Positions 1 through 39,412 are shown, counted from the stretch's first letter. The stretch: DNA of 64,000 bases from an uncultured Gammaproteobacteria bacterium (GCA_964527425.1 CAZGOA010000004.1:35691-99690); one strand, 5' to 3'. Program-made: numbers and translations. The notes: a model not told the origin generated them from the sequence alone.

Positions 1-2749
1 ACTCATCACCTAAAGCTAGCGTTACTTCATCAACAACAGCCTGTTGTCTCTCGTTTAAATGGCCATGTTCATAGTTAATCGGTGAAACTCCGTTAAACGC
101 GAGTTTTTCATTAATAATTCTATACCTTCTACTTAGAGCTTCGACGAGTTGAGAAGCGTTTTGAACAGGTTCACCATTTACACCTTTTATTCCATTAAAC
201 ACACCATTCGCTCTCCATATATTAAATTGCTCAACTGCATCTTTTGATTTACCATCAATCATCACATCTAAAATTGTTTGCGGTCTGAATTCTGCAATTT
301 CATGCCACATATCATGAATTTTATGTTCCGCTTTGTGATGATCATCATGTGATTCCGCACCTAAAAAATCTGCACCTGCCATACGCAATCTCATACCCAT
401 TGCAATTCCTCTGGCGTGACCTTCCCCTTGTCCATACATTTGATCTGCCTGTTTAATATATTCTGCAATTCTCCATGTCGATGAAAAATAATCATTATGC
501 CCAGGAAATCCACCTAAAACACTTTCGCCTACTTTAGTTTTTATTGCATAAAATAAATCATCATTAGAGACATCTTCCCATCTTTTAGGGATATCTTTTT
601 CTGATCTTCGAGAACCAGTTTTCATATCTACACTATAAAAAGATTCCAAATTACCAGGGTTTTCATTAAAATATTCTTGCAAAAACTCAAGAGCTTCTGG
701 ACTTCCCTTACTGATTCCTTGCCTGCTCATGTATTCATGAATTTGATGATCGACATCTCTTCCAATGCCTGTAGAATTTGCAGCCATTAAAGAAGCTTGC
801 CTTAACATGGCTTTCTTACCTGGATTTAAACGCATGTAGCGCTCCATATGTCTAATAAGATCCATGCTTTCAATTAACATTTCGTTAGAATCACGTATGA
901 ATGATGATGGTTCCTGATCAATAGGTAACGGTTTTCTTGCTCGTAATAATGGCAATAAATCTCGTTGAGAAATTACGGCTACGTCTTCTGCTAACAACAT
1001 TAGAGATTCAACATCACTTTCTTTGATTTTTCTTTTATTATTTCTCTCCTCTATTTCATTTTCTGGTAAAATTTTGTTAAGTGGATCATTACCTTTGCCA
1101 AAGGTATTACGGTACATATCGTTATACAATTCGGCTTCTTGTAATAATTCATTCTTTAATTTCTCATTAACTTCTTTATATGTATAAGCGGTAATCCTTC
1201 TTAATTTCCCGTCTTTATCTCTTCTCGCCTCATTTAACATTTCAATATATTTTTGATACACAACATCTACCATACCGCCTTCTTGAGATAAAACGTGATG
1301 CATTCCTTTGGTACCCACACCGCTCAAGATTTTTTTTGCCGATTCTGGATCTCCTGTTTTTGAAATAATATATGAAGAATACATTACTCCCATGCGGTAA
1401 TTCAAAATATCTTTCACTTCTTCTAAATCTCTCATTCGTTGCTCCACAAATTGATCAACTAAACCATCACCATTTTGACTTAATAAATCATAATAACTTA
1501 CTCCATCAATTTTTTTTCTTCTTAAAAATGTCAAAGCGTTCTCTCTAGTATTTCGCAGTGTAATATAATCCTGAAATAAACTGATTTGTTGTTGAATTTG
1601 TTGAGCGCTTTCTTGATTGGCGTTTTCAAATTCTTTACGCACACTTCGCAATAAATTTTCAACTCCACCAAAAGGATCTTCATACAATTCTTCTATGCCG
1701 TCCTCAGTAAGTTCAAACCGGCTAAGTCGATTAAACTCTTCGTTTTGAGGTCTTCTATTATTTAAATCACGAATTGAACGTTGTATAGAATCTTCTTCTG
1801 GATCATTTGATTGAGATTCAACATATGTATTAGTTTTTTTAGGATTTATCAATGACTCTTTTCTATCGTTAACTCTTCCTTTAACCTTCATTATCATTAC
1901 TTTTTGCTCTTGAGTTAAATTGTTAAATTCTGAAGATTTTATAAGTTCATCAATTTCTCTATCATACAGGACTAGCCAATCTTCATCTTCAGATTGACCT
2001 GCATTTAACTTTTGCTCAAGCACTAAAATCTCATCTCTTATTTTTCCTACTGGTAATGATTCTAAATCAAGATCATATAAGATACCCACATCTTCTTTTA
2101 ATACCTCTGCTAATTCTTGTATTTCAGGAATGTCACCGTATACTTTTTTCATTTCTTTAAGATACTCCTTGGCTTCCTTGGCAGCTGGAGATCCAAAGCC
2201 TGTGGCAACCGCAATACTAACCAAGTCTACAGCAACCTCTTTAGCAATATCTGAATCAGTTTTTCCTTCTTCTGGTTCTGAATATAATTTATTTACTGCT
2301 GCTAAGGTGCGTGCATCACTGGGATCAGTTTTGATAACAGCTCGCGCGTTATCAAAATTTGGGTTATCAATTTTTTCTTGTTTGTTTTTTTCAAAAACAT
2401 CTAATGATTCACTATCCGGATCAATTTTTCCTAACCAATATGCCTCTGGAACTCTCGCACGAAGTTTTTGTTCCATGCTGGATTGTGCATCACGAAAAGT
2501 TTCGATAATTCCTTTAAAAGGTGGCAACACTTGTTTAACATCTTTTTCAGGTGGTGGAAACAATTTTTTAAAAACGTCTGGAATAGTACGTTTATCATCA
2601 GTTTTTAGCGGAGCTTTTACTGTTTTATCAGCTACTCTAGTAGTTATTTGTTTTGCAGCCTCAAGAAGAACCTCACCAATGGGCTTGGCTTTTTTTTCTT
2701 CTTCTTTTTTTGTGGCATCAAACCCTCCATACCGTTCTATTCTAGCCAT
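1..2749 (-). CDS. Very large hypothetical soluble protein; the N-terminus is complete (ATG at 2749) and the C-terminus runs beyond the window edge. No membrane-spanning helix was seen, and there is a His-rich patch (HDDHHKAEHKIHDMWHE).
   Basis: I translated the minus strand by hand from the ATG at 2749 down to position 1: more than 916 codons with no stop. The sequence is charged and alpha-helical in character (MARIERYGGFDATKKEEEKKAKPIGEV...). The ORF track omits it because the stop codon lies outside the window. The plus-strand ORF 2130..2813 is its antisense shadow. Confidence 0.65.
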   Translation of the reverse strand, partial: MARIERYGGFDATKKEEEKKAKPIGEVLLEAAKQITTRVADKTVKAPLKTDDKRTIPDVFKKLFPPPEKDVKQVLPPFKGIIETFRDAQSSMEQKLRARVPEAYWLGKIDPDSESLDVFEKNKQEKIDNPNFDNARAVIKTDPSDARTLAAVNKLYSEPEEGKTDSDIAKEVAVDLVSIAVATGFGSPAAKEAKEYLKEMKKVYGDIPEIQELAEVLKEDVGILYDLDLESLPVGKIRDEILVLEQKLNAGQSEDEDWLVLYDREIDELIKSSEFNNLTQEQKVMIMKVKGRVNDRKESLINPKKTNTYVESQSNDPEEDSIQRSIRDLNNRRPQNEEFNRLSRFELTEDGIEELYEDPFGGVENLLRSVRKEFENANQESAQQIQQQISLFQDYITLRNTRENALTFLRRKKIDGVSYYDLLSQNGDGLVDQFVEQRMRDLEEVKDILNYRMGVMYSSYIISKTGDPESAKKILSGVGTKGMHHVLSQEGGMVDVVYQKYIEMLNEARRDKDGKLRRITAYTYKEVNEKLKNELLQEAELYNDMYRNTFGKGNDPLNKILPENEIEERNNKRKIKESDVESLMLLAEDVAVISQRDLLPLLRARKPLPIDQEPSSFIRDSNEMLIESMDLIRHMERYMRLNPGKKAMLRQASLMAANSTGIGRDVDHQIHEYMSRQGISKGSPEALEFLQEYFNENPGNLESFYSVDMKTGSRRSEKDIPKRWEDVSNDDLFYAIKTKVGESVLGGFPGHNDYFSSTWRIAEYIKQADQMYGQGEGHARGIAMGMRLRMAGADFLGAESHDDHHKAEHKIHDMWHEIAEFRPQTILDVMIDGKSKDAVEQFNIWRANGVFNGIKGVNGEPVQNASQLVEALSRRYRIINEKLAFNGVSPINYEHGHLNERQQAVVDEVTLALGDE

Positions 2750-2818
2750 ACCTGTATTTTATCCCTTTATTACAATCTCCTCAAGCAGAAGACCTAATTT
2801 ATTGCTTTTTTAAGACAC

Positions 2819-3598
2819 TCATGGAACATACGGGAGATTGCGCTTAAATGCGTTCTTCTCTACCCTGGACAGAATCTTGTCAACTGATTGTTCATTTTTC
2901 AGAACATTTTTTACCTCTTCCTCGCTCTTTTGTTGATCAAAGTACAACTTTAAAGCACTATCTGCCTGCTCATAGGTAAAACCCAATTCCTGCTCATCTG
3001 ACTGGCCTTCCCAAAGATTTGCAGACGGCGGCTTAGTCAGAATATTAGTGGGCACTTGTAAATACTCCGCAATTGTATAAATCTGTGTTTTATACATTTC
3101 CCGTAGTGGTTCTATGTCACTTGCTTCATCACCATACCGTGTATAGTACCCAAGATAATGCTCGCTTTTATTTTCTGTTCCTATGACAAGCGCATTTCTT
3201 TTTTTAGCCATATCATATAAAAGAATCATTCGAACACGAGCCATGATGTTTCCTTTTCGTATAGCATCCATAGTGTTGTCAAGCTTAACAAATACATCCA
3301 CAATACTCTGAATATCCTGTTCTACTACGTGTTCAGCCGGTATACCACAGCTTGAAATGACCTCTCTGGCATGAAGGACAGACTGCTTACCTAATTCTCC
3401 ATACGGCATCAGAACCGGAAACACATGCTCAACACCTAAAGCATTTACAGATAGACATAAACTTGTGGCTGAATCAACACCTCCTGAAACACCAATAACA
3501 ACATCTTGAAAACCTTCTTTTGTTACAGTTGACTTGATAAATTGCGTAAGCTCATCAACAATAACACTCGGGTTAATGATAAATAGATCTTTGTTCAT
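2819..3598 (-). CDS. nadE: NH3-dependent NAD+ synthetase
   Basis: N-type ATP-pyrophosphatase motif GVSGGVDSA, about 260 aa, and overall similarity to NadE. Confidence 0.8.
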   Translation of the reverse strand: MNKDLFIINPSVIVDELTQFIKSTVTKEGFQDVVIGVSGGVDSATSLCLSVNALGVEHVFPVLMPYGELGKQSVLHAREVISSCGIPAEHVVEQDIQSIVDVFVKLDNTMDAIRKGNIMARVRMILLYDMAKKRNALVIGTENKSEHYLGYYTRYGDEASDIEPLREMYKTQIYTIAEYLQVPTNILTKPPSANLWEGQSDEQELGFTYEQADSALKLYFDQQKSEEEVKNVLKNEQSVDKILSRVEKNAFKRNLPYVP

Positions 3599-4164
3599 GA
3601 ATGATATAAGTCATGTTCTGTTATATAGTCATTAACCGTAGGGGCAACAAAACCATATAAAGACAGACGACGCATGACCCTATCTCTTACTTTAGTAGAA
3701 GAAATATTGCTGACGATTAAACTACTGTCATTTACCATAGTCATATTCTCATATAACGGCTCGTTAGGATAACCATATCGAGGAAAAACAAAAAAAGGAA
3801 GTCGCTTAAGTAATTCTTTCCAGTTTCCCCATAAATGAAAGGTGGGTAACTGATCAGATCCAATGACAAAATGATACGTATGTTCTTGAGGCAAAAAAGG
3901 CAGCAAATTAATTGTGTTTCCATCTAATTGATTATCAATTTCTAGAGAGGAAACAGAAAATCTTGGTTCCTGGGACTCTTTAACCATACGTTCTACCATG
4001 GATAAACGATGTCTGGGATCTACAGCTTCTTTTCGAAATGTATGTTTATATGAAGGAAGAAACCATATTGCTTCACAGTCTGTAAAATCTAAAACTTGTT
4101 GTGCAATTAATAAATGTCCTAAATGTGGTGGATTAAACATCCCACCAAGTAAACCTACCTTCAT
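3595..4164 (-). CDS. nadD: Nicotinate-nucleotide adenylyltransferase
   Basis: N-terminal GGMFNPPHLGHL, which is the (H/T)xGH nucleotidyltransferase motif. Its start overlaps nadE by 4 nt and its end overlaps the upstream ATPase gene by 4 nt. Confidence 0.8.
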   Translation of the reverse strand: MKVGLLGGMFNPPHLGHLLIAQQVLDFTDCEAIWFLPSYKHTFRKEAVDPRHRLSMVERMVKESQEPRFSVSSLEIDNQLDGNTINLLPFLPQEHTYHFVIGSDQLPTFHLWGNWKELLKRLPFFVFPRYGYPNEPLYENMTMVNDSSLIVSNISSTKVRDRVMRRLSLYGFVAPTVNDYITEHDLYHS

Positions 4165-6359
4165 ATAATTTTTTTGGTATACCTCTCTCTTGAAGATCTT
4201 ACTACTTTTTGTCTGTTTTGATTTCTGCTCTTTGGCAGTGGGAGTGTTATAGCAGAAAAGGGATTCGATGTTTGATTATCAATAGATAATTTTAATACTG
4301 TTTGGTAATTACCTAGCCCCACAAGTTCCTCTTCTTTATATTTTTGTCCAAACTCTCTTGACAGAATTTGTGCATCTTGTGCTCCTACGCTAAATGAAGC
4401 AATTGATCCGCAGTTACCAAAAATAGCTTTTTGAACGTCCTCATCTATTTGTCCAATATATTGATTTGCCAACATAAGATTTAGTCGATATTTTCTCGCT
4501 TCTGATAAAATTTTAATAAAAGATGATGTAGCAAAATTCTGAAACTCATCCACATATAAATAAAAATCTCGACGATCTTTTTCTTCTATATATACTCGAT
4601 TCATAGCCGCCAGCTGCATTTTGGTAATCATCATTGCACCTAATAAAGCACTATTGTCTTCACCCAGTTTCCCTTGTGATAAGTTCACTAACACAATTTT
4701 ACCTTGATTCATCATATCTTCTAGATTTATTGTCGAAACCGGACTGCCGACAATTTGACGAATTGTTTGAGAAGATAAAAACTGTCCAACTTTATTAAGA
4801 ATTGGTGATATTACTTCACTTTTCATTTGTGGACTAAACTGCCCGAATTCATTTATCCAAAAATTTTTAAGCACTTGATCCTCTAACCTTTCTACAATTT
4901 TACTTCGATACTTCTCGTTGGCTAATAATTCTGGAACCTGTAACAGGGTTGCGTTAGGAACAGAAAGTAGCGTCAGAATCGTATTTCGCAAGATATATTC
5001 CAGTCTCGGTCCCCAACTATGGGCATAGAGTTTATAAAAAATAGACACTATTCCTGATGAGACAAGCTCTTTATATACAGGATTTTTAACTTCTAACGGG
5101 TTAAGGTGAAAAGGGTGTTCAATGTCTGCTGGATCTAAATATGCCACATCATTAATTCGATATGAAGGAATAAAATCCAACAACACATCACATAAATCTC
5201 CATGAGGATCAATAATCGCTACACCTTCTCCATTTCTCATATCATTAATAACCATGTTTGCAATCATGGTCGATTTTCCTGTTCCGGTTTTTCCAACAAC
5301 ATACAGATGTTTTCTTCTGTCATCTTTTTTTATACCAAATGTAGCAGTGGTATTTTTATACTCAGTTCTAGCAAAAAAGTTTATCTTTTTCTTCTCTTCT
5401 TCATTGTCTACAGACACAGGAAGGTTGTCTGGTGCCTCCCCTATTAAACGCGATCCCCAGGAAATATTTTTTACTAAAGATAGAGACAACCCAGGGGGAT
5501 GCCAGAGAGAAGCTGTCTCAGAAACACTCAATATTTGATTTCGAGGAATAAAACCATCAGTCCGTTCCATCATTACTTTTACAAACTTATTTTTAAATAT
5601 ATTCCAAGGTTCAGATAATACCAATCCATTCCCCTCGCCCTGTGTAAAGACACCAAATGATCCAGCAAGTTCGTTGAGCACATGTTTAGCATGTTGCTGG
5701 TCTGGTCCTACCACCAACACCCGCAAAGCAGCTTTAAATCCTGTTTGTGTTGTTTTGGTTTCAATGAGTGATGCATACGGATGTGCTTTTGCCTTACCAG
5801 GATTATTGGGATCTGGAACACCTTTTGAGACAATTCGTGCCGCAGATTGTTGCCAACCATGTCCAGCTGGCCTCATCCATAATTGAATTGCTACTGCTTC
5901 TTTACTGGATAATTTAGCCATTTGACCGAACACACTGGCTAACATATCAATATCTTTTATTTCTCTATATGTTTTGAGTGGATAATAATACGAGTTTGAT
6001 AATACTAACTGCCCTACTACATGCGGATGTGCTACGAAATGACTCATATAATCTTCTACTTCTAAAAAGATTAGTTTGGGATAGTGAGCAGTCATTTGAC
6101 TCTGGACATATGTCACCAGTGTTTGGGGAATGTTAATAAACAAATGAATTCGTGTGTTTACTGAAATTATTTCAAAAGAAAACATGGGTGCAGTATGAGA
6201 ACGAAATAATCTGCCCAATACTCCCCCGTGATGAGAAGAAGAGCCTAAAGCCGCAAAAATCTGTTCCATTGCCAATGGGGACTCTTCACTATCTTTACTG
6301 TTTCTTATTTCCAGCAAAATACGCTTATTTTCCATCTGTTTAATGGTATCACACAGCAA
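4161..6359 (-). CDS. VirD4/TraG/TraD-like type IV secretion coupling ATPase (paralog 1), carrying an N-terminal extension of about 330 aa
   Basis: Walker A YVVGKTGTGKST followed by DPHGDL, and a Walker B-like YVDEFQNF. It is paralogous to 57821..60169. No N-terminal membrane-spanning helix is apparent. Confidence 0.7.
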   Translation of the reverse strand: MLCDTIKQMENKRILLEIRNSKDSEESPLAMEQIFAALGSSSHHGGVLGRLFRSHTAPMFSFEIISVNTRIHLFINIPQTLVTYVQSQMTAHYPKLIFLEVEDYMSHFVAHPHVVGQLVLSNSYYYPLKTYREIKDIDMLASVFGQMAKLSSKEAVAIQLWMRPAGHGWQQSAARIVSKGVPDPNNPGKAKAHPYASLIETKTTQTGFKAALRVLVVGPDQQHAKHVLNELAGSFGVFTQGEGNGLVLSEPWNIFKNKFVKVMMERTDGFIPRNQILSVSETASLWHPPGLSLSLVKNISWGSRLIGEAPDNLPVSVDNEEEKKKINFFARTEYKNTTATFGIKKDDRRKHLYVVGKTGTGKSTMIANMVINDMRNGEGVAIIDPHGDLCDVLLDFIPSYRINDVAYLDPADIEHPFHLNPLEVKNPVYKELVSSGIVSIFYKLYAHSWGPRLEYILRNTILTLLSVPNATLLQVPELLANEKYRSKIVERLEDQVLKNFWINEFGQFSPQMKSEVISPILNKVGQFLSSQTIRQIVGSPVSTINLEDMMNQGKIVLVNLSQGKLGEDNSALLGAMMITKMQLAAMNRVYIEEKDRRDFYLYVDEFQNFATSSFIKILSEARKYRLNLMLANQYIGQIDEDVQKAIFGNCGSIASFSVGAQDAQILSREFGQKYKEEELVGLGNYQTVLKLSIDNQTSNPFSAITLPLPKSRNQNRQKVVRSSRERYTKKII

Positions 6360-6436: not shown

Positions 6437-7669
6437 TTGCTTGAACACAAAAAAGCACTTACAATGATACATATGCTAGAACAGCACCCTGTTCCTCAAA
6501 ATGTCACGACGTTTCAGTTTAGATTAATTGGTGACATGACGCTAAAACAATTCGGCTATCTTGCCGGGGGGGCGATATTGGCATACATTTCTTATAATTT
6601 ACCTCTGCCATTCTTTTTTACGTATCCGTTAACTGCAATTTTTGCTTTTGGTGCAATTGGATTTGCCTTTATTCCTGTAGAAGAACGCCCTATGGATGTA
6701 TGGTTTGTTTCTTTTGTAAAAAGCATCTATAGTCCTACTCAATATGTATGGCAACGTGAAGAGATGAGTTCTCCTAAACAATCTTCGCCAGTTATTGGTA
6801 TGGGTCCATTAACTCAAATTATTGACCGCATTCTGCCTATCCCAAAACCACGTCAGGTGCCATCCACTTCACAACCTACAACAACGACACAGACTCAGTC
6901 ACCACTTGCTCCGCTATCACAAGGTTTGTCTTTTTTAAAATCAAAATCTCTAAACCTGAACACTTCACAAAAGCCAGCGTTTCAATCACTAACTCCCGTT
7001 ATGGCTAGTACACCTATCCCTCAAAAAACTGCAGGACAAACAAATCCACCACCAACTCCTGAACCTGCACAACAACCCGATGATTCCAAGCCGACTCTTA
7101 CGAGTCTAGAGCAACGCCTAAAACAAATGGAGGAACAGCTGGAGAAAGAACGTCAAGAGAAACAACGCTTAGCCACAATCCACGAACAACTTTTACAAAC
7201 TCAACAAGAAAAAAAATTATTAGAAGAAGAGCTGCAAAAAATTAAACAAAACATACAACCTTCTGTGCCAGATAAAAAGGATGATATTGTAAAGCAGGCA
7301 GGAATACCGGTTCCACCACAACAACCAGTAGTTTCTAGTTTATCGAGTCAACCAAATGTGATAACCGGCATTGTCCGTGAACAAAATGGTAATCTGCTGG
7401 TAGGCATTTTGGTCACAGTAAAAGACAAAGATGATATTCCAGTTAGAGCTCTTAAAACCAATAAATTGGGCCAGTTTGCTTCTTCTACTCCCTTAAACAA
7501 TGGAACATATACGATAGAAGCAGAAGATCCCAAAAAACAATTTTCGTTTGATTTGGTTGATGTAACACTCTCTGGTCAAGCCTTAACACCACTTCAGCTT
7601 ATTGCAAAATCAAAACAGCAACTCGAAAGACAACAACTTGAACGTGCTCTGTTTGGAAACAAACAATAA
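6437..7669 (+). CDS. Membrane protein with two N-terminal membrane-spanning helices (PrgI/VirB3-like position), then a Pro/Thr/Gln-rich low-complexity region, a coiled coil and a C-terminal beta-sandwich domain resembling a carboxypeptidase-regulatory domain
   Basis: Hydrophobic helices LAGGAILAYISYNLPLPFFFTYPLTAIFAFGAIGFAFIP. The gene sits immediately upstream of the VirB4 homolog. The C-terminal segment ITGIVREQNGNLLVGILVTVKD...GTYTIEAE fits the pattern of a CarboxypepD_reg-like domain. Confidence 0.45.
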   Translation: MLEHKKALTMIHMLEQHPVPQNVTTFQFRLIGDMTLKQFGYLAGGAILAYISYNLPLPFFFTYPLTAIFAFGAIGFAFIPVEERPMDVWFVSFVKSIYSPTQYVWQREEMSSPKQSSPVIGMGPLTQIIDRILPIPKPRQVPSTSQPTTTTQTQSPLAPLSQGLSFLKSKSLNLNTSQKPAFQSLTPVMASTPIPQKTAGQTNPPPTPEPAQQPDDSKPTLTSLEQRLKQMEEQLEKERQEKQRLATIHEQLLQTQQEKKLLEEELQKIKQNIQPSVPDKKDDIVKQAGIPVPPQQPVVSSLSSQPNVITGIVREQNGNLLVGILVTVKDKDDIPVRALKTNKLGQFASSTPLNNGTYTIEAEDPKKQFSFDLVDVTLSGQALTPLQLIAKSKQQLERQQLERALFGNKQ

Positions 7670-7685: not shown

Positions 7686-8348
7686 ATGTCTCAACCTGTC
7701 ATTCCGATTCGTTCTTCATCACAACAATTTACCGAAATTGAAGATATTGACAGAGACTTAGTTATGTTTCGCGATGGTTCTTGCGCAATGATATTATCTA
7801 CAACTGCTGTAAACTTTGGCCTGCTTTCTGAAAAAGAACAGGAATCATTGATATATGCTTATGCGGGGTTGTTAAATTCTCTGACGTTTCCCATGCAATT
7901 GCTCATTAGAACACAACAAAAAGATATTACTTCTTATCTTGAGGCACTCAAAGAACAAGAGCAAAAACAAAAAAACCCAAAGCTTGCGTACAGTATTCAT
8001 GGATATAGAGAATTTATTTCTCAAACAGTAAAAGAAAAAAATGTCTTAGATAAAAAATTTTATTTGGTTATTCCCTTTTCCAGCCTTGAAATTGGGAATT
8101 CGGCAAATGTTCTTTTTGGCAGCAAACAAAAAGGCCTTCCTTACCCAAAGGCACATATATTTGACAGAGCACAGATGGTGTTAGCACCGAAGAAAGACCA
8201 GATGATTCGCTTGGTGAGCAGACTGGGTTTAAAAGTAGATCAACTCAATACGGCTCAGTTAAAACGGTTTTTCTTTACTGTATACAATCCTGGAATACCC
8301 ATACCTGAAAGCATGACCGAAGAAAATTCTATAAAGGATACTCCATGA
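7686..8348 (+). CDS. VirB4-like ATPase, N-terminal domain fragment (about 220 aa)
   Basis: FTEIEDIDRDLVMFRDGSCAMILSTTAVNFGLLSEKEQESL matches the conserved N-terminal domain of VirB4/CagE/TrbE. The gene ends in an ATGA overlap with the next ORF. Confidence 0.55.
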   Translation: MSQPVIPIRSSSQQFTEIEDIDRDLVMFRDGSCAMILSTTAVNFGLLSEKEQESLIYAYAGLLNSLTFPMQLLIRTQQKDITSYLEALKEQEQKQKNPKLAYSIHGYREFISQTVKEKNVLDKKFYLVIPFSSLEIGNSANVLFGSKQKGLPYPKAHIFDRAQMVLAPKKDQMIRLVSRLGLKVDQLNTAQLKRFFFTVYNPGIPIPESMTEENSIKDTP

Positions 8349-10285
8349 AAGTAACAGATATAGTTAAAAAGTTTCTGAATCCAATGCCTGAAAACACACC
8401 CGTTAAACACACGACGTCTGGCCCGCTTCTTGTTCGTGATATTATTGCCCCACCGGCGATAGAAGTTGATTTTGACTATATTAAAATTGGAGAATATTAT
8501 TTTCGAACGCTTTTTGTTGCTGGATATCCACGTTTTGTTTCTGCAAATTGGCTAGAGCCGATTATCAGCTTTGATCACACGCTTGATATTTCAATGTTTA
8601 TATATCCCAGCAGATCTGAAGAAATTTTAAGCAATCTAAAACGAAAAGTCGGAGAGATGGAGGCGACCATTCAATCAGATCTTAAACGAGGAAGGGTTAT
8701 TGAACCATCCGTTCAAATAGCACTCGAAGATGCACTCACACTGCAACAGGAGTTGGCCAAGGGAGCAGAACGCTTTTTTCAATTTGGTTTGTATATAACC
8801 ATTCCCGCTAAATCAAAAGAGGATCTTGATAAAACAACAAAACAGGTAGAATCAACGCTTGGATCTTTATTAATTATTGCCAAACGCGCCATTTTACAGA
8901 TGGAAGAAGCGTTTAAGACAACACTTCCTATGGGTCAGGACAGACTGGTTGTTACAAGAAACATGGACACAACCTCACTTGCCACCACATTTCCTTTTAC
9001 AACCTCTGAGCTGACAGCAAACGAGGGGATTTTATATGGCATCAATGAACATAATGACAGTTTGGTAATTTTTGACCGTTTTAGCTTAGAAAACGCAAAC
9101 ACCCTGGTGTTTGGAAAGTCTGGATCAGGAAAAAGCTACACAGTAAAACTAGAAATTATTCGAAGCCTCATGTTTGATACTGAAGTGATTGTTATTGATC
9201 CTGAAAACGAATATGAGTCTTTGACGCATACGCTTGGCGGAGAATATATACGATTTAGTTTTGATAGTCCCACTAAAATTAATCCATTTGATTTAGCCTT
9301 ATTAAAAAATAGCGAAGAAAGTGAACTGAATCAAAAAATATTATCTTTACACGGCTTTTTTAAAGTAGTTATGGGAGAACTTAACCCATCAGAAGACGCT
9401 CTTTTAGATCAAGCTCTTATTCTTACATATAAACTACGCGGTATTACTCCAGATCCCTCAACACAATCACAAGAACCGCCTCTTATGGAAGATCTCTATA
9501 AAGTATTAATTGGCATGGAAAACACCATGGCAAAGAGCTTGGCAGACAGAATTGAAAAGTTTGTAAAGGGCAGCTTGGTGGGAATATTTGATAAACAAAC
9601 TAACATTGAAATACGAAACCACCTGACCGTTTTTTCGATAAGGGATCTTGAGGATTCTCTGCGTCCAATTGCTATGTATCTTATTTTGGATTACATTTGG
9701 ACTCGGGTTAAGCGTGAGAAAAAACGACGAATTCTTATCGTAGATGAGGCTTGGTATATGATGAGGTTTCCTGATTCTGCAGAATTTCTCAACTCAATAG
9801 CAAAAAGAGCTCGAAAGTACTATTTAGGAGTAACAACAATTACTCAGGATGTAGAAGATTTTCTTTCTGTTGATTTGGGTAAAACGATTATTTCTAATAG
9901 TAGTTTGCAGTTTCTCATGAAGCAATCACCTTCCGCTGTAGATAAGGTCGCAGAAGTGTTTAATTTATCTGAGGGAGAAAAACATTTGTTAATGGCTGCC
10001 GACGTTGGCGAGGGGTTGTTGTTTGCGGGCCCTGCACATGCTGCAATACGTGTTATCGCCTCTCCTGAGGAACATGCGCTTGCAACCACAAAGCCTCAAG
10101 AATTAGAGCAGAGAGCCAAAGAAGAAGAAAGAAAAGAACAAAACAGTAAACCCCCTGTGTCTCCTACCCCACCTTCTGCCCCACCATCTCCTTCAAATAC
10201 AACAACTGTTGTAGATGTGTCTCCATCTCAACAGCAAAACAGACCAGTTTTTACTACAGAAACAGTAAATATAAATTCCACATAA
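8345..10285 (+). CDS. VirB4-like type IV secretion ATPase, ATPase portion (646 aa)
   Basis: Walker A VFGKSGSGKSYT and a Walker B region ILIVDEAWYMM, which is the VirB4/TrsE/PrgJ-like architecture. The C-terminal tail is Pro/Ser-rich. Confidence 0.75.
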   Translation: MKVTDIVKKFLNPMPENTPVKHTTSGPLLVRDIIAPPAIEVDFDYIKIGEYYFRTLFVAGYPRFVSANWLEPIISFDHTLDISMFIYPSRSEEILSNLKRKVGEMEATIQSDLKRGRVIEPSVQIALEDALTLQQELAKGAERFFQFGLYITIPAKSKEDLDKTTKQVESTLGSLLIIAKRAILQMEEAFKTTLPMGQDRLVVTRNMDTTSLATTFPFTTSELTANEGILYGINEHNDSLVIFDRFSLENANTLVFGKSGSGKSYTVKLEIIRSLMFDTEVIVIDPENEYESLTHTLGGEYIRFSFDSPTKINPFDLALLKNSEESELNQKILSLHGFFKVVMGELNPSEDALLDQALILTYKLRGITPDPSTQSQEPPLMEDLYKVLIGMENTMAKSLADRIEKFVKGSLVGIFDKQTNIEIRNHLTVFSIRDLEDSLRPIAMYLILDYIWTRVKREKKRRILIVDEAWYMMRFPDSAEFLNSIAKRARKYYLGVTTITQDVEDFLSVDLGKTIISNSSLQFLMKQSPSAVDKVAEVFNLSEGEKHLLMAADVGEGLLFAGPAHAAIRVIASPEEHALATTKPQELEQRAKEEERKEQNSKPPVSPTPPSAPPSPSNTTTVVDVSPSQQQNRPVFTTETVNINST

Positions 10286-10289
10286 CCCA

Positions 10290-12635
10290 ATGGCTTTTTC
10301 TTTACAACAACTACAACGATATCAAAATGTTTTAGAATCTCCTCTCGAAGGAGGCCTATCACCAGATCCTTATTTATTTATAGAATCTATCGCCTATCTT
10401 TCTAAGTTTCATGAAGGGAGAGCGGCCATTAACATTCTTCCACGAGAAAAACGTCAACTCATAGAAACTAAACTCTTAAAAGAGGTTCCCCTGGAACAAG
10501 ATGAAATTTCGATGTTTTATGAGCTGCAAAAAGCGCTTCTTGATAATTTAACTGTTATTAAAACACTGTTGGAAGACGGGATTGATCCAGAAATAAAACA
10601 GCAAGCCGATATTTCAAGAAATACCGTAGAGGCTATAAACAGTGTTTCAACAGACAAAGAACAAACCAGACAACAATGGAAGCAAACCAAAGAAGCGATA
10701 ATAAAAGATTGGATAAGATTTTCCAGAGCTGATATTTCAGATAGTCAAAGGCAGGAACTTGAGCGAACGCTTAATAAGCTTAACCAGTTTACGTCCTCAC
10801 GAGAAGTGTTTTCTTTTTTAGACACAGAATCAGAACGCATAACAGCTCATTCACCAGCGAATTATTTAAACAACCGCTCCAGTGTTCCAGTTCAAGAGTA
10901 TCGGGAAGCAGAAGAAGCCATTACTTACGCTAATAATCGGATAGCCTTGCTTTCCGCTATGACAGATACAGTAGAATTTTCTTCTCGGGATGTGCCCCTT
11001 GTTGATCCTCACCTTCCTGCTGGAAAATCATCTTATCCGGACATGCGTCTCTATTTAAAAGCACAAGCGGTGTTACATAAAGACCCGAGGTTAAAACAGC
11101 TTAACAAAGAGAGAGAACAGATGGCTTTGTTAGCAGTAAACGCCGCAGCTCTTTCTCAAAGCCAGCTCCCTGAATCATTAACAAGAAATGATCCGGAAAT
11201 TGCTGAACAGACACTGCGAGCGGTGCTTGAACAGAAGTTTGGTGTTCTAAATGATAATCGCCTTACTCAGCTCATTGGCGACACCAGCAATCCAGAGACT
11301 GTTCAAAAAACATTAAGGGCAGTATTGTTTATTGATGCTGCTGTAACAGCGCAAGAAAATAAAACAACAAAACTGGCAAGACTTTTTTTTGAATCAACAG
11401 CCTTTGATCAATTTCAGCAATTCATTAAAAAACAGGCTCAAGAGAACAACAGTGCGTCTCTGTTGGGAATCACACAGGAACTGTTTTCAAGTTTAACAAC
11501 CGCTGCTCAAAATCCAGAAACCAATACGTTTTTACCGTATATTATGGGAATATACCTATCAGAAGGAACTGGAAAACCCAAAAGCCTGTTGGAACAACTA
11601 CTTAATAAAGGACAGCAAGCTGGAGATAACCAACTACTATTACTAGAAGGAGCAAAAGAATTCGTTTTCGCTTCACTAAACGATTCAAACAACAAAACCA
11701 TCTACATACCTCATCAGTTCCTACTCTCTTCTCTTTTGTCACAACAAAACCTTTTTTTCCGTGTTGCTAATCGGTTTTTTTCCTTTGGTAATTATATTAC
11801 CCCAGATAATTCAACTAAACGAGAACTAAGATCAGTGGGTGTTCAGACACGAAATGTATTGCTAGATGGATTAAGTGTTGCTGGACGTTCCTTCCCGAAG
11901 CCTTTTTCCTTGGTTTCTCGCGCTTTGGGCAGTCTATTTTCTCCTTCTCCGGGCAGGATGGCAGTAAATGCAGCTGCCTTTTTTGTAAAGAAAAACCCTG
12001 TGTTTTGGATTGTGACAGGTGTAATTATTGTGCTAATTACACTAATTATACTTCCTCAACTCTCTTCTCTGGATTCTCTACAAAGAAACATGATGGGTGA
12101 GTCTATTCAAACGGGAGGCGGCGGCGGAACAAATTACAGTAGTTTTGTTTGCGAAGCAGACGATCCTTCTTGTCAGCCTTGTGATCCAGCAACAGAAAGC
12201 TGCAGTTGGCCTGTAAACAACGGGTGTATAACCAATGGACCTGGTCCACAACACAAGACTAGTCCAGGCGGGGCAGCGATAGATATTAACGCACGTTTTG
12301 GTACAGGTGTGACTGCAACACATGATGGCGTGGTAGTTGGATTTAAATTTACAGACCCGGAAAACAAGTTTTCTTCAACGCCAGACTATGGAAACTACGT
12401 CAAGATCCGTGGTGTTCGTGCAGGAAAAACCTTCTATACAATTTATTCTCATCTTCGTCCTGTTGATCCTATTGGCATGTTTAATGGTTTACCTGTCAAA
12501 TCTGGTGAAGTTATTGGTTTTGTAGACAATACCGGATATTCTTTTGGAACACATTTACATTATGAGGTTATTGGACTTCCTCTTGAAGCGTTGTTCCCTT
12601 TTCCAACGACTCGGGGAACATGTGTGAACCGCTAG
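10290..12635 (+). CDS. Large membrane protein with a C-terminal M23 (LytM-type) metallopeptidase domain; a putative cell-wall hydrolase associated with the T4SS-like block
   Basis: M23 motifs GGAAIDINA...GNYVKI...YSHL...GEVIGFVDNTGYSFGTHLHYEV. There is a single membrane-spanning helix (VFWIVTGVIIVLITLIILP) after about 570 aa of helical N-terminal domain, followed by a cysteine-rich segment CEADDPSCQPCDPATESCSWPVNNGC. Confidence 0.7.
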   Translation: MAFSLQQLQRYQNVLESPLEGGLSPDPYLFIESIAYLSKFHEGRAAINILPREKRQLIETKLLKEVPLEQDEISMFYELQKALLDNLTVIKTLLEDGIDPEIKQQADISRNTVEAINSVSTDKEQTRQQWKQTKEAIIKDWIRFSRADISDSQRQELERTLNKLNQFTSSREVFSFLDTESERITAHSPANYLNNRSSVPVQEYREAEEAITYANNRIALLSAMTDTVEFSSRDVPLVDPHLPAGKSSYPDMRLYLKAQAVLHKDPRLKQLNKEREQMALLAVNAAALSQSQLPESLTRNDPEIAEQTLRAVLEQKFGVLNDNRLTQLIGDTSNPETVQKTLRAVLFIDAAVTAQENKTTKLARLFFESTAFDQFQQFIKKQAQENNSASLLGITQELFSSLTTAAQNPETNTFLPYIMGIYLSEGTGKPKSLLEQLLNKGQQAGDNQLLLLEGAKEFVFASLNDSNNKTIYIPHQFLLSSLLSQQNLFFRVANRFFSFGNYITPDNSTKRELRSVGVQTRNVLLDGLSVAGRSFPKPFSLVSRALGSLFSPSPGRMAVNAAAFFVKKNPVFWIVTGVIIVLITLIILPQLSSLDSLQRNMMGESIQTGGGGGTNYSSFVCEADDPSCQPCDPATESCSWPVNNGCITNGPGPQHKTSPGGAAIDINARFGTGVTATHDGVVVGFKFTDPENKFSSTPDYGNYVKIRGVRAGKTFYTIYSHLRPVDPIGMFNGLPVKSGEVIGFVDNTGYSFGTHLHYEVIGLPLEALFPFPTTRGTCVNR

Positions 12636-12656: not shown

Positions 12657-13595
12657 ATGAAGCATGGCAAAAAAGTTCTGTTTGTTGCAGTAATACTAGT
12701 TGTTGGTATTGCTGCGTTTGTGTACACAAGAACACAACAAACCGCGTCTCCCCAGCAACTACCAGTCGTTTCTGACACCCAAAGCCTGGGTGTTTCTCCT
12801 AATTATTCAGACATATCACTCTCTCCTGTGTTTGTTTTGCCACAGAATGTAAACGTACCAGAATCTCTCCCGGAATATGCAGTAACATATGATATAAACG
12901 TGACTGGTTCTCTCCAGGAATTAGCAGATTTATTATTAATAAACACTCCTTCTAGAGAAAATTATGGTCTCGTTGAATGGAATAGCGAAGATTTTTTTCT
13001 TTCCTACAATACTCGTGACCAATCCGTTGCAATTACTCGTTTAAATCCTTCTTCTGATTTATTACAAAACCAAACCGAGCTGTTTGATGTGCTTAGACGC
13101 TCTGGGTTTCTTTCTTCAAATATTACGTTTAAAGAAGTATTAAACACTACTCTCAAAGGTGTTGATGGTGGAATTGGACCGCTGGCGGTTCAACAGTTTT
13201 CCGCGCATATTGACGCTTATCCTCTTTTTTTCTCTCTCGCTGATTCTGTATGGTTGTCTCTTAGAAAAACTCCTCAAGGGGCTGTGGACACTGTTTCTTT
13301 TACTATCCCCCCAAATCAGGCGACGAAAGAACAAACAAAAAAAACATTTTCTCTACCTCAGATATTAGAACTTTTAAACTCTGGTAAAGGAACACTGTTT
13401 TCTGCAGATTTTCAGGTAAATAAAGAATTTGGCACAATACCTAATTTTACAACAGTAACCGTTTCCTCCCTCTCTGTTGCGTATCTTCTTTCCGCAAATA
13501 ATACTCTGGCAAAACCGGTATTCGTGTTGCAAGGAATAGGCACGGGTTCAGGTAGAGCACAAGAGGTTATCTATCTCCTTCCTGCAACAAATTAG
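12657..13595 (+). CDS. Hypothetical secreted or membrane-anchored protein (N-terminal membrane-spanning helix or signal anchor)
   Basis: N-terminal KKVLFVAVILVVGIAAFVY. It is co-directional with the T4SS-like genes and directly follows them. The function is not recognisable; a VirB8-like role is speculation. Confidence 0.4.
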   Translation: MKHGKKVLFVAVILVVGIAAFVYTRTQQTASPQQLPVVSDTQSLGVSPNYSDISLSPVFVLPQNVNVPESLPEYAVTYDINVTGSLQELADLLLINTPSRENYGLVEWNSEDFFLSYNTRDQSVAITRLNPSSDLLQNQTELFDVLRRSGFLSSNITFKEVLNTTLKGVDGGIGPLAVQQFSAHIDAYPLFFSLADSVWLSLRKTPQGAVDTVSFTIPPNQATKEQTKKTFSLPQILELLNSGKGTLFSADFQVNKEFGTIPNFTTVTVSSLSVAYLLSANNTLAKPVFVLQGIGTGSGRAQEVIYLLPATN

Positions 13596-14701
13596 CCCTG
13601 GATTCTAACCGGCATGATTATGTGCAAAAAGTCTTCTCTTTTGGGTATTCTAAACACCACCGGACTAAGCGCTCCTGAAAGCCGAATGATTAATTGATCA
13701 GACTTTACATTCGATAAAAACTCTATGAGAAACCTGCTGTTTAAGGCAACGGTAGCATCTTCCCCTTCTACTTCTGCCTCTAGCTCTACTTTGTTTTCTC
13801 CTATTTGTGGCGTATTAGCGCTTACTTCTAGCGTTCCTGGAGAAATTGAAAAACGAAGAACCCCTGCACTGTCTCTTGCAAAAATACTTGCAGACTTAAC
13901 TGCTCGCGTTAACTCTTCGGTGTCTATGGTTACTGCTGTCTCATGAACAGAAGGAATGATTTTTTTATAATTAGGATAGTCTCCCTCTATTCTTCTGGTT
14001 GAAAGTTGTGTGTCTCCAAATGTAAAAGTTAATTGTCCATCTATTGATTCTGTAATGCGTATGCGTTCTGCTTCTTTTTCATCATTTCCTTGTTTAATTA
14101 CCTCTGTTACAGCTCTTGCTGGAATCACTATTGGTTGTGAAGAAACCTTGTCTTTCCCCTTTAAAGAAGCCATAGACATTCTATAGCCATCGGTTGAAAC
14201 GACGGTCGTTCCTTCTTCTGTTGGCTCCATTCTAACCCCCGTCAACAACGGTCTTGCTTCGTCTGTTGCAGCAGAAAACGAAACTAAGGAAAGAGAAGTT
14301 AATAGTTCTTCTTTTACCAGGTCTGTTCCTGTATTGCTAGTAACTTCTGGTGTTGGTGGAAACTCTGCTGCTACAAAGCTGGGTATTTTTGCTTTACTTC
14401 TGTTACTTTCGATTACTATCGTTTCTTTTTCTACCACTACAGAAACTGTTCCCCTAGAAAGAGAGGATAAAAATTCCTGAACTATTTTGGCCGGTAGACA
14501 ACAACGTCCTTCTTTTTCTATTTTTCCCGGTAATGCAGTTTTGATGGTTGTTTCAAGATTTGTTGCGGTTATTGAAATTGCACCATTTTCTGCTATGAGC
14601 AAACAATAACTCAGTATTGGCAGTTGAGGTTTTGTCTGTATAATTCTCGTTACTTTATTCATTGCTTTTATAAAGTGTTCCTGAAGACAAGTAATGTTCA
14701 T
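13592..14701 (-). CDS. dnaN: DNA polymerase III beta subunit (sliding clamp)
   Basis: The N-terminus MNITCLQEHFIKAMNKVTRII...LIAENGAISITATNLETTIKT is typical of beta clamps. The gene lies immediately downstream of dnaA. Confidence 0.85.
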   Translation of the reverse strand: MNITCLQEHFIKAMNKVTRIIQTKPQLPILSYCLLIAENGAISITATNLETTIKTALPGKIEKEGRCCLPAKIVQEFLSSLSRGTVSVVVEKETIVIESNRSKAKIPSFVAAEFPPTPEVTSNTGTDLVKEELLTSLSLVSFSAATDEARPLLTGVRMEPTEEGTTVVSTDGYRMSMASLKGKDKVSSQPIVIPARAVTEVIKQGNDEKEAERIRITESIDGQLTFTFGDTQLSTRRIEGDYPNYKKIIPSVHETAVTIDTEELTRAVKSASIFARDSAGVLRFSISPGTLEVSANTPQIGENKVELEAEVEGEDATVALNSRFLIEFLSNVKSDQLIIRLSGALSPVVFRIPKREDFLHIIMPVRIQG

Positions 14702-14891
14702 GCGTTCCTTTCTTAATTAAATTAAATAGTAATAGTATATAGAAATGGTCGTGGAAAAGTGTATATCTTTTTGATTTGTTTATCAAATCAACAAAATTCC
14801 TCTTTTCTTTTTTGGATATTTCGGTTTTTTCTGTTGATAAAGACGTGGATAAATCAGGTCTCCTTGTTGATATGTGGAAAAACAAAAAAAT
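14702..14891. promoter_or_regulatory. Candidate oriC segment: AT-rich dnaA-dnaN intergenic region with a cluster of DnaA-box-like 9-mers
   Basis: TGTTGATAA (14832-14840), cGTGGATAA (14844-14852), TGTGGAAAA (14873-14881), cGTGGAAAA (about 14750) and TTTGGATAT (about 14812). An AT-rich stretch at 14711-14750 is a possible DNA unwinding element. Confidence 0.55.
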
Positions 14892-16316
14892 CTACGTGAA
14901 TAACTGAGACCTTATCCCCACAAGAGCGTCTTTCATTTGTTGATTTGTTAACAACTCCTTTTCGATTGTTTCAATACCATGAAGGACTGTTGAATGATCC
15001 CTTCCTCCCAAAAGCCCACCGATATCATCAAGCGTTACTTTTAGCTCTTTGTAGCAAAGGTACATAATCAATTGACGTGGGCGGGCGATTGGTCTATCTC
15101 TTTTGGGTCCCTTAAGGTGCATTGGTTTAATTTCAAAATACGCAGAAACAGCCTCCAAAATGTCTAGAGGAGTTACGCGTTTAGAAAATGACTGTTTAGA
15201 AGAAACAGCCTGTGGTTGAGGACTTTCTGGGTCTATGTTTAACATCCTTCCTACTGTTTCCGGAGAAATTTCAATTTTTTTGATCGCAACCTCATTTAAT
15301 AGTTTTCGTAAAAATCCTTCTAACGCACGCGTGTCTGTGTGGGCAGAAGCTATTAGTTGAGCAACCTGGCTTGAAACAGGTATGTTTAATGCCTGTGCTT
15401 TTATGTTTACGATAGCAACTCGCAGCTCAAAATCTGGTGCTGCTACATCGACGGTTAAACCACCCTCAAAACGAGACCTGAGCCTGTCTTCAAGTTTTGC
15501 TATTTCTGAAGGGGGTCTATCGCTTGTAAGGATAATTTGCCCTCCTTCTCTGTGCACCGCATTAAACGTATGGAAAAACTCTTCTTGAGCAGTTTGTTTG
15601 CCAGCAATAAATTGAACATCATCTATAAGAAGAAGCTCTGCCGAGCGATAGCGCTGCTTAAGCTGAAGGCCCGTTTTTTTTTGTATTGCCTCAACTATCT
15701 GGTTTAGAAACTCTTCACCCATAGCGTAGACAATTTTTATATGTGGTCTTTTTTTTAGCACTTCATTTGCTACTGCATGCATAAGGTGTGTTTTTCCCAC
15801 ACCAACACCACCATATAAAAACAACGGGTTGTATGCTGTTCCTGGAGAACGTGCCACCGCTGTTGCAGCAGCGTGTGCCAGTTGATTGCTGGGAGACACA
15901 GCGAACGATTCAAATGTTGCATCTGGTCGAATATGCAGTTTTTTTGCTATGGAAGCAACATCTTGAGAAGAACGAACCACCTGTTCTGCAAACAACGGGC
16001 CAGCTAATTCTGGTTTTAAATCAGATTTTTTTACCAAAGAAGTAAACACGAGACTTGTGTTTTCTTTTGTTAGTTGGTCTAGAATTCCCTTTATCAGTGA
16101 ATAGTACCGTGATTCTACCGTAAGCCGCATCCCTGGATTTATGGCTATAGTGGCTACTCCCTGATGAAAGCTTTGGAGTTCTGATTTTGCGAACGCTGTT
16201 TTATAAATTGCCTCAGAAACACTCATTTCCAACTCTGATTGTACTGATTTCCAAAGTTTGACTGTATCCATAGAAGAAACCACAAGGGGCAAACACAAGT
16301 GGGTAAAAGTATCCAC
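14892..16316 (-). CDS. dnaA: Chromosomal replication initiator protein DnaA
   Basis: AAA+ Walker A GGVGVGKTHL and the C-terminal DNA-binding helix-turn-helix region (LKVTLDDIGGLLGGRDHSTVLHGIE). Confidence 0.9.
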   Translation of the reverse strand: MDTFTHLCLPLVVSSMDTVKLWKSVQSELEMSVSEAIYKTAFAKSELQSFHQGVATIAINPGMRLTVESRYYSLIKGILDQLTKENTSLVFTSLVKKSDLKPELAGPLFAEQVVRSSQDVASIAKKLHIRPDATFESFAVSPSNQLAHAAATAVARSPGTAYNPLFLYGGVGVGKTHLMHAVANEVLKKRPHIKIVYAMGEEFLNQIVEAIQKKTGLQLKQRYRSAELLLIDDVQFIAGKQTAQEEFFHTFNAVHREGGQIILTSDRPPSEIAKLEDRLRSRFEGGLTVDVAAPDFELRVAIVNIKAQALNIPVSSQVAQLIASAHTDTRALEGFLRKLLNEVAIKKIEISPETVGRMLNIDPESPQPQAVSSKQSFSKRVTPLDILEAVSAYFEIKPMHLKGPKRDRPIARPRQLIMYLCYKELKVTLDDIGGLLGGRDHSTVLHGIETIEKELLTNQQMKDALVGIRSQLFT

Positions 16317-16383
16317 ATCTTATGAAGAATTATCCACACTCGCAAGAGGCAGATTTAAGGTTTTTTGAAAACTTATCCACTGT
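16308..16383. promoter_or_regulatory. Three DnaA boxes upstream of dnaA (second oriC module, or an autoregulatory site)
   Basis: TATCCACA at 16311-16318, a perfect TTATCCACA at 16330-16338 and TTATCCACT at 16373-16381, all in the same orientation. Confidence 0.6.
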
Positions 16384-16388
16384 CTTTT

Positions 16389-17054
16389 TTATTCTTGTTT
16401 GGATTCTTCAGAAGAAGCCGCTTCTGTTGTGGGTGTCTCTTCTGTCTCCTCTTTTGCTTCTGATTCTGCAGCTTCTGTTGCAACTGGCTCTTCTTCTACA
16501 ACAATTGCGCCGATTTTTACAACAGTTTCTTCAGCGTCTGATAAAACGGTTACCCCTTCTGGGACAACGAGGTCTTTCACCGTTTTTTCACTGTCAACCA
16601 CAGCCAGAGCATCAATGTTGATAACTAAAGATTCTGGAATTTCTGAAGGAAGGGCTTCAATTTCTATTTCTTGCAGGACCTGAATAAGGGTACCTAAGCC
16701 CTCTTTAACAGCAGGCGCTTCTCCTTCTATCGTGATCGGGATCATGGTTTTCATTTTTTCCTTTAAGTTTACCTTCAACAATTCAACATGTAACACTTCT
16801 TTTGTAACGGGATGTTGTTGGACGACATGAATTAAAACCGGATGTTTGGATCCATCAATGAGCAAATCAACCAGGTGTGTTTGCCCAGCTTCTTCATATG
16901 CTTTTTTGAAATTTACTGTTGGAATTTCGATTGATATACTTTCAAACCCTTTTCCATAAACAGATGCAGGAAGTTTACCCTCTTTGCGAAGGTGTTTTAC
17001 CTTGTGTCCAAGGGTTTTTCTTTTTTCTGCTTGTAATGAAATTGTTTTATTCAT
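16389..17054 (-). CDS. rplY: 50S ribosomal protein L25 / general stress protein Ctc
   Basis: KRKTLGHKVKHLRKEGKLPASVYGKG...FKKAYEEAGQTHLVDLLIDG, which is the L25 fold, with an acidic C-terminal tail. Confidence 0.8.
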   Translation of the reverse strand: MNKTISLQAEKRKTLGHKVKHLRKEGKLPASVYGKGFESISIEIPTVNFKKAYEEAGQTHLVDLLIDGSKHPVLIHVVQQHPVTKEVLHVELLKVNLKEKMKTMIPITIEGEAPAVKEGLGTLIQVLQEIEIEALPSEIPESLVINIDALAVVDSEKTVKDLVVPEGVTVLSDAEETVVKIGAIVVEEEPVATEAAESEAKEETEETPTTEAASSEESKQE

Positions 17055-19471: not shown

Positions 19472-19596
19472 AGACTACGGAGAATCCTTTCATTAGTATG
19501 CCACAGCTGGTGACCGAAAAAAACGCCCCACATTACTCTAGGTTATGCTATTTATTGAACGCTACATGAGCAAGAAAGAAGAAGAATATAAGAGAA

Positions 19597-20007: not shown

Positions 20008-20031
20008 AAGAACGAAGTATAACAGTGTAAT

Positions 20032-21255: not shown

Positions 21256-21304
21256 GGATTAATTGTAGACGCATTTCTTACAAAAGAGAAATCAAAAAAA
21301 CACC

Positions 21305-22597: not shown

Positions 22598-22650
22598 TAT
22601 ACATCATGCTATCACTCTTCTTTGAGAAAAGTAGAGTTGTAAAAAATAGA

Positions 22651-23968: not shown

Positions 23969-23986
23969 AATATGGTGGGTATATGT

Positions 23987-37933: not shown

Positions 37934-37935
37934 GG

Positions 37936-39384: not shown

Positions 39385-39412
39385 AGTATTATCGTAAAAC
39401 AGGATGATTACA

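Follow-up and report, generated by a model that had tools for sequence, protein, structure and literature searches.

The 64,000-nucleotide stretch of DNA analysed here (CAZGOA010000004.1:35691-99690, hereafter the window) encodes two paralogous P-loop ATPases that probably represent one established branch of the type IV coupling proteins, encoded in a replication-origin region of Patescibacteria. They share one architecture, in which an optional membrane anchor is followed by the domain DUF8128 and by a TrwB/VirD4-type P-loop domain with an all-alpha insertion. An earlier reading of this DNA from the sequence alone (the sequence-only reading) had described what appeared to be a novel domain in an odd operon; the case is one of a catalogued domain in a published locus type, and domain, paralogy and locus type are all already known or published. 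Two points were not found in the literature searched, namely that DUF8128 is predicted to fold like VirB4 and that it recurs in the coupling proteins of several conjugation clusters of monoderm bacteria and archaea.

Paralogue 1 lies on the minus strand within the open reading frame (ORF) 4161..6359, and paralogue 2 (782 aa) on the plus strand at 57821..60169. The former ORF is present as the sequence-only reading had delimited it, opening with a TTG at 6359, but its start is more likely the ATG at 6335, which gives a protein of 724 aa (4161..6335). We prefer this ATG because orthologues have lengths of about 724-729 aa, P0124, with 95% identity, being exactly 724 aa long. The two proteins are 36% identical over 702 aligned residues (BLASTP, E 3e-152), in an alignment whose first residues, 14 in paralogue 1 and 53 in paralogue 2, lie well ahead of the Walker A motif. 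Identity amounts to 43.8% between the C-terminal ATPase halves and to 27.5% between the N-terminal regions by themselves (306 aa, 104 bits, E 1.4e-30). When the partner of the N-terminal comparison was shuffled 200 times, the best score was 24.3 bits and the mean 15.8, against the 104 bits of the real pair. The proposal that the paralogous ATPases have an N-terminal domain in common thus stands, with a length of about 300 aa. The motifs quoted for it (HHGG, SFEI and IHLF/IRFY) do align between the paralogues, but only part of them is conserved throughout the family, namely SFEIV and IRFYV; in the family alignment E54, D128, K139 and Q149 are invariant.

Both paralogues contain the Walker A motif GKTGTGKS, whose residues are invariant in the homologue alignment A3, and the Walker B motif YLYVDEFQNF. 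In paralogue 1, all on the minus strand, DUF8128 occupies aa 2-307 (5415..6332) and the TrwB-like nucleotide-binding domain with its all-alpha insertion 4236..5384, with Walker A at 5271..5294 and Walker B at 4533..4562. In paralogue 2, on the plus strand, a hydrophobic anchor (57848..57940) precedes DUF8128 (57962..58879) and the ATPase domain (58883..60055), with Walker A at 58973..58996 and Walker B at 59717..59746. As had been claimed, paralogue 1 is devoid of a membrane-spanning helix: no 19-residue span exceeds 1.6 on the Kyte-Doolittle scale and the maximum is 1.34. Paralogue 2 has one hydrophobic segment (approximately aa 3-42, maximum 2.66). The two-helix N-terminal anchor placed directly before the nucleotide-binding domain is found in neither protein.

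The N-terminal domain itself had been taken to be novel, yet it is already in Pfam as PF26449 (DUF8128). A precomputed hit to this family lies on the exact paralogue 2 protein and on every listed orthologue of paralogue 1, including one that is 95% identical; all homologues from the large protein database searched come with such a hit too. Our own scan of the N-terminal regions against Pfam and NCBIfam returned nothing at E<=10, the Pfam null being due to the copy scanned, which predates and lacks PF26449. A profile built from the DUF8128 domain alone (A2) scores paralogue 1 with E 1e-102 and paralogue 2 with E 1e-171; since both N-terminal domains were among its input, these values mainly show that one family profile fits both. 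Searched against 1.84 billion proteins, A2 recovered 4,727 representatives of 50%-identity clusters at E<=1e-3, 2,890 of them at E<=1e-10. No paper on PF26449 or DUF8128 was found in the literature searched, and the passages of Quinonero-Coronel et al. (2025, PMC12102498) retrieved by term search contain no discussion of an N-terminal domain in coupling-protein homologues. Close homologues come from sources named Gottesmanbacteria for paralogue 1 and Levy-, Roizman-, Curtiss-, Woese-, Pace- and Collierbacteria for paralogue 2, names that place both paralogues in Microgenomates (Patescibacteria). Database matches of 350-600 aa that contain only DUF8128 were considered as stand-alone patescibacterial domains and rejected, being partial gene calls or, in the two long contigs inspected, genes split by a frameshift. 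Orthologues of paralogue 2 are divided into two calls in the related loci L024 (7001..9350, 486+306 aa) and L025 (7001..9392, 590+201 aa); assembly frameshifts, and not genes that are truly split, are the most likely cause.

The assignment to the coupling proteins rests on the C-terminal half. Paralogue 1 matches the Pfam models TrwB_AAD_bind (34 bits, cut-off 20.5) and TraG-D_C (31.9 bits, cut-off 22), and paralogue 2 matches the same two with 27.6 and 25.6 bits as well as T4SS-DNA_transf (24.7 bits, cut-off 20.1); DUF87 lies above its gathering cut-off in both. None of the NCBIfam equivalog cut-offs was reached, the TraD and CD1115 models scoring far below theirs for either protein. The only sequence match of the paralogues in the PDB is TrwB (1e9r/1gl6). 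These Pfam and PDB matches start only at about residue 320-375, so that TrwB-type proteins lack the N-terminal region, as the sequence-only reading had held for canonical VirD4. An AlphaFold model of full-length paralogue 1 (pLDDT 88.4, pTM 0.61), with helices at 419-529, was compared with known structures using Foldseek. Its C-terminal half superposes on TrwB chains with target-normalised TM-scores (TMt) of 0.60-0.68 and root-mean-square deviations of 4.4-6.5 over about 410 columns, and it also matches DotL and Cag-beta.

Structure prediction gives the N-terminal domain a different affinity. The AlphaFold2 model of this domain from paralogue 2, calculated from a 108-sequence alignment, is a confident one (pLDDT 93.9, pTM 0.91), and the order of secondary-structure elements is identical in the models of both paralogues. 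Compared with the PDB in Foldseek, its first 14 matches are all R388 TrwK/VirB4 chains (E 8e-9 to 1e-5, probability 1.00, query-normalised TM-score 0.45-0.51), with the next, unrelated matches beginning at E 5e-4. Moreover, the full-length model of paralogue 1 aligns colinearly with the whole of TrwK over about 830 columns (E 8.5e-16). On the level of sequence no such relationship appeared: hhalign with alignment A1 of the N-terminal domain against the VirB4 and TrsD proteins of the window, and with A2 against alignments of their orthologues from the relatives' loci, found no similarity, and the DUF8128 profile gave no VirB4 link for this domain among all PDB sequences at E<=10. The models suggest that DUF8128 is a domain with a VirB4-type N-terminal fold that is fused to a VirD4-type motor.

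The same two-domain architecture recurs as the coupling protein of several conjugation clusters in monoderms and archaea. A tblastn search of plasmids with the N-terminal domain returned 38 records of 24-31% identity, 33 of which cover at least 80% of the query (95-99% for most of the matches listed), in Bacillus, Priestia, Pontibacillus, Shouchella and many haloarchaea. The window-derived full-length profile recognises WP_144625398.1 of B. subtilis NRS6116_2 (913 aa, E 1e-78) and WP_248290882.1 of S. clausii ENTPro (883 aa, E 1e-83), both without a membrane helix. In each of these two cases the gene for the DUF8128 protein is followed directly by a replication-relaxation family gene and then by TcpD/TcpE-like and VirB4-like genes. 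An Embleya (Streptomycetaceae) plasmid has the order PrgI, XF1762, VirB4, WP_331738717.1, replication-relaxation and NlpC/P60, the fourth of these being an 812-aa protein with a membrane anchor, a DUF8128-like domain and an ATPase, which the full-length profile likewise recognises. On Priestia megaterium pFDU301A, TrsD and VirB4 diverge from the DUF8128 gene as they do in the window. In Haloterrigena pHTS138 (L022, 7758..12051) the two domains are separate: after pilin and VirB4-like genes, a stand-alone DUF8128 gene of 399 aa overlaps the start of a gene for a TraM-recognition coupling ATPase of 1034 aa (WP_204749458.1 and WP_204749459.1). Because they are plasmid-borne and adjoin a replication-relaxation gene, the plasmid homologues are presumably true conjugative coupling proteins. 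This recurrence fits the descent of the patescibacterial system from the mating-pair formation (MPF) class MPF-FATA, as stated in the retrieved passages of PMC12102498. Two other candidates were set aside. The Bacillus matches are not pLS20, whose gene 48 product has two N-terminal helices and the ordinary IPR003688 architecture. For the ATPase half, the top match among plasmids, in Sulfitobacter, is uninformative on architecture since it is an ATPase-only gene of 395 aa, without DUF8128 and beside transposases.

The surroundings of paralogue 1 had been described as no usual conjugation context, which does not hold. Across a 78-bp spacer, and divergent from it, the plus strand encodes a PrgI-family (VirB3-like) membrane protein (6437..7669), a TrsD/TraC-like protein related to the N-terminal part of VirB4 (7686..8348; NF041427 TrsD, E 1.6e-6; PF26593 in orthologues), a VirB4-family ATPase (8345..10285; P-loop_TraG 4.8e-28, AAA_10, CagE_TrbE_VirB), a cell-wall hydrolase with a C-terminal M23 peptidase domain and a VirB1-like role (10290..12635), and a conserved gene that closes the cluster (12657..13595). 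Adjoining it on the minus strand are dnaN (13592..14701) and dnaA (14892..16316), and the lowest point of the cumulative GC skew falls here, at about 14-16 kb; the origin neighbourhood (13592..24571) further comprises genes for ribosomal protein L25, a Jag/KhpB-like R3H protein, yidC and rnpA. The window represents the region around the replication origin of a patescibacterial (Microgenomates, Gottesmanbacteria-like) chromosome. As judged from its gene content, the locus is a patescibacterial MPF-FATA-like type IV secretion system (T4SS) locus, with PrgI, TrsD, VirB4 and hydrolase near dnaA; of those window ORFs of 100 aa or more that were scanned against Pfam, none matched a relaxase family. 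Patescibacterial T4SS loci near the replication origin are already described in the retrieved parts of PMC12102498, with which the missing relaxase also agrees.

The divergent secretion cluster is kept in nine of nine close relatives, whose paralogue 1 orthologues are 64-80% identical. On the other flank, relatives carry a gene of 1174-1353 aa, next to it one of about 490 aa and then four genes for VirB2-like pilins. The position of these pilin genes corresponds to sequence beyond the window start, and none was seen within the window. More distant orthologues from other patescibacterial lineages (L007-L011, about 50% identical, 702-888 aa) have unrelated housekeeping genes, such as those for serA-like, aminotransferase, peroxiredoxin, YidC and PP2C proteins, as neighbours and no adjoining secretion cluster, so that adjacency to the T4SS is a lineage-specific trait. 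Some 45 kb separate paralogue 2 from virB4, and it is unlinked to mating-pair-formation genes. Its conserved neighbourhood consists of NrdR, a class II ribonucleotide reductase, cobalamin adenosyltransferase, small ORFs, the ATPase itself, idi (NUDIX), a tyrosine recombinase and DivIC. By appearance, paralogue 2 is a core gene passed on vertically, far from the secretion cluster. Directly upstream, at 55988..57818 on the plus strand, are a 449-aa ORF with a cysteine-rich C-terminus (several CxxC-like pairs) and a 147-aa ORF (57375..57818) whose end lies 2 nt from the start of paralogue 2. Since L024 has a homologue of this smaller protein at the same position, a role as partner of paralogue 2 is possible for it.

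This separation raises the question whether either of the paralogues or the pair, but above all paralogue 2, was released from the secretion system by exaptation and now acts as a membrane-associated translocase of DNA or protein in its own right, for example in taking up or exporting DNA or in chromosome handling. The distance from virB4, the conserved housekeeping neighbourhood and the lack of a detected relaxase speak for such a role, as do passages of PMC12102498, according to which only 148 of 5,713 patescibacterial homologues lie near virB4, the homologue of S. epibionticum is non-essential, and exaptation was raised by the authors themselves. A precedent exists in archaeal CedD, which combines an anchor, a VirB4-like N-terminal domain and an ATPase and acts in DNA import (PMC11868833). 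However, the retrieved text of PMC12102498 also notes that genes for coupling proteins often lie apart from virB4, both paralogues retain a full DUF8128 and intact Walker motifs, and paralogue 1 is linked to the secretion cluster in all nine close relatives; we regard exaptation as rather unlikely. It is improbable that the proteins are extra VirB4-type ATPases and not coupling proteins, although this would account for the best full-length PDB matches being TrwK/VirB4 (E 8.5e-16 to 1e-12, about 830 columns), for TrwK as best match of the N-terminal domain, and for a weak TIGR00929 VirB4_CagE match on paralogue 2 (E 4e-5). Against it, the VirB4 models of Pfam (CagE_TrbE_VirB, P-loop_TraG and AAA_10) match the true VirB4 of the window and neither paralogue, whereas the coupling-protein models pass their cut-offs. 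The C-terminal half fits TrwB with a TMt of 0.6-0.68, compared with a TM-score of about 0.3 for the whole protein on TrwK. Furthermore, a genuine VirB4 and its partner TrsD are already encoded in the locus, and the homologues in Bacillus, Shouchella and Embleya adjoin a replication-relaxation gene and coexist with a separate VirB4.

A different question concerns the two genes downstream of paralogue 1, nadD (nicotinate-nucleotide adenylyltransferase, 3595..4164; TIGR00482, 124.8 bits, cut-off 112.45) and nadE (NAD+ synthase, 2819..3598; NF010587, 295.8 bits, cut-off 255), both on the minus strand. The overlaps that the sequence-only reading had pointed out are there, the ATPase stop and nadD start sharing ATGA at 4161-4164 and the nadD stop and nadE start at 3595-3598. 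Together with the absence of terminator-like sites on the minus strand between the three genes and with promoter-like matches at chance level (16 found, 16.5 expected; both by pattern scan), these 4-base overlaps make the proposed co-transcription likely. One could read this as a functional operon joining the ATPase to the last two steps of NAD synthesis, for instance for T4SS-dependent acquisition of pyridine-nucleotide precursors from a host cell or, in a variant, to provide NAD for a secreted effector that consumes it, of which the large protein encoded downstream would be an example. The overlaps imply translational coupling, nadD lies downstream of the orthologous ATPase in eight of ten informative relatives and nadE is present in four of those eight, and a large ORF (2..2749) continues on the same strand past nadE. 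Nevertheless, we consider a functional link, in either form, highly improbable. The spacing before nadD ranges from the overlap seen here up to about 450 bp (the relatives have gaps of at least 3 bp), a 23S_rRNA_IVP gene is inserted between ATPase and nadD in L017, and nadE is often missing; both NAD genes are absent from L002 and L004 as well as around L007-L011, which are all the more distant orthologue contexts. Patescibacterial genomes are compact, paralogue 2 sits equally tightly among ribonucleotide reductase, cobalamin adenosyltransferase and idi, and no family or structural feature ties the ATPase to nucleotides besides ATP. Such variable presence and spacing points to genome compaction and inherited gene order, and nadD and nadE are probably co-transcribed housekeeping passengers inside a secretion locus.

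The large ORF on the minus strand begins 69 nt downstream of nadE and, at 916 aa or more, runs off the window start; the gene of 1174-1353 aa in relatives occupies the corresponding place, between nadD/nadE and the pilin genes. It has no sequence match in Pfam, NCBIfam or the PDB, its N-terminus is hydrophilic, and it evolves fast: phmmer recognises only a gene of L019, which lies beside an 80%-identical ATPase orthologue. Its product could be T4SS-associated or secreted. An ORF on the opposite strand (2130..2813, 227 aa) is probably not a gene and was rejected, being antisense within this position-conserved ORF and without a family match.

Taken as one branch of coupling proteins, the two paralogues comprise paralogue 1 as the soluble copy belonging to the chromosomal MPF-FATA-like secretion locus and paralogue 2 as the membrane-anchored copy in a conserved housekeeping neighbourhood. 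Each may form a hexameric ATPase for ATP-driven substrate delivery, which is the default expectation given that the Walker A and B motifs and the TrwB-like fold are kept. For DUF8128 the predicted fold suggests a role, since the N-terminal domain of R388 VirB4 pairs VirB4 protomers and contacts VirB3 and VirB8 (reviewed in PMC12857230). By analogy, we propose that DUF8128 is a docking module that brings the motor onto the PrgI/TrsD/VirB4 platform, in place of transmembrane helices or in addition to them; this would let paralogue 1 and its Bacillus and Shouchella homologues, all of them soluble, work without such helices. The nadD and nadE genes would be ordinary housekeeping genes, probably co-transcribed and translationally coupled with the ATPase and without a link to secretion. 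We tentatively go one step further, in a proposal that we hold to be possible but doubtful: the DUF8128 coupling proteins may constitute an old and distinct branch of the VirB4/VirD4 superfamily, common to Firmicutes, Actinobacteria, haloarchaea and Patescibacteria, which kept a VirB4-type N-terminal domain, docks to VirB3/TrsD/VirB4 through it and not through transmembrane helices, and would be a living intermediate between VirB4 and canonical VirD4 with its membrane anchor. If the similarity of folds reflects true homology, monoderm and archaeal MPF-FATA and patescibacterial coupling proteins would attach to the channel unlike textbook TrwB/VirD4. True homology would also bear on the origin of coupling proteins from a VirB4-like ancestor and on the cargo of the essential, relaxase-less secretion system of Patescibacteria.

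Some other genes of the window deserve mention. Besides nadD there is a second small cytidylyltransferase-like gene on the minus strand (24744..25220, 158 aa, PF01467), which could be coaD or another nucleotidyltransferase. A dense cluster for purine interconversion extends over 36893..47408 and includes an IMPDH with CBS domains, an IMPDH/GMP-reductase-like protein without them, purB, purA, adenosine deaminase and guaA; a 449-aa ORF (43528..44877) lies within it. Near the end of the window, a YafQ-like toxin gene on the minus strand (63168..63703; weak Pfam match on the identical gene of L013) and its upstream 86-aa partner are probably a toxin-antitoxin pair.

Set against known systems, the window proteins share with the TrwB/VirD4/TraG family, represented by R388 TrwB (1e9r/1gl6), the P-loop nucleotide-binding domain with its all-alpha insertion and, in paralogue 1, genetic linkage to virB4. 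They differ from it in the DUF8128 domain of about 300 aa before the ATPase, in the anchor (two helices in TrwB, none in paralogue 1 and one segment in paralogue 2) and in the lack of a relaxase found near them. VirB4/TrwK (PDB 7o41-7o43, 8rtb, 8rtd) offers the best fold match for the predicted DUF8128 and a colinear alignment over the whole protein, but its N-terminal domain has no detectable sequence or profile similarity to DUF8128, the ATPase half of the window proteins is of the VirD4 type, and the locus encodes a separate VirB4. Among published systems, crenarchaeal CedB and CedD come closest to a VirB4-like domain joined to an ATPase; their N-terminal domains are reportedly homologous in structure to parts of the one in VirB4 (PMC11868833). 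Like paralogue 2, these proteins combine a membrane anchor, a domain resembling part of the VirB4 N-terminus and an ATPase of the FtsK-HerA superfamily. However, the NCBIfam CedD model covers only the Walker A region of the window protein (36 bits, cut-off 600), and the Ced ATPases are of the HerA/VirB4 type whereas those of the window are of the TrwB type.

The plasmid-encoded DUF8128 coupling proteins come with the same two domains, in soluble and anchored forms, and with PrgI, TrsD and VirB4 as neighbours. Those of Bacillus, Shouchella and Embleya are plasmid-borne and adjoin a putative relaxase (replication-relaxation) gene, whereas the window copies are chromosomal core genes; in the haloarchaeal system the two domains are separate genes. 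Finally, the VirD4-like homologues of Patescibacteria described by Quinonero-Coronel et al., which the retrieved passages of that study number at 5,713 in 2,918 genomes and hence at about two copies per genome, resemble the window pair in phylum, in copy number and in the MPF-FATA-like locus near the origin without a relaxase. They differ in linkage: few of those homologues, as counted there, lie near virB4, whereas in the lineage studied here one copy stands consistently beside the cluster.

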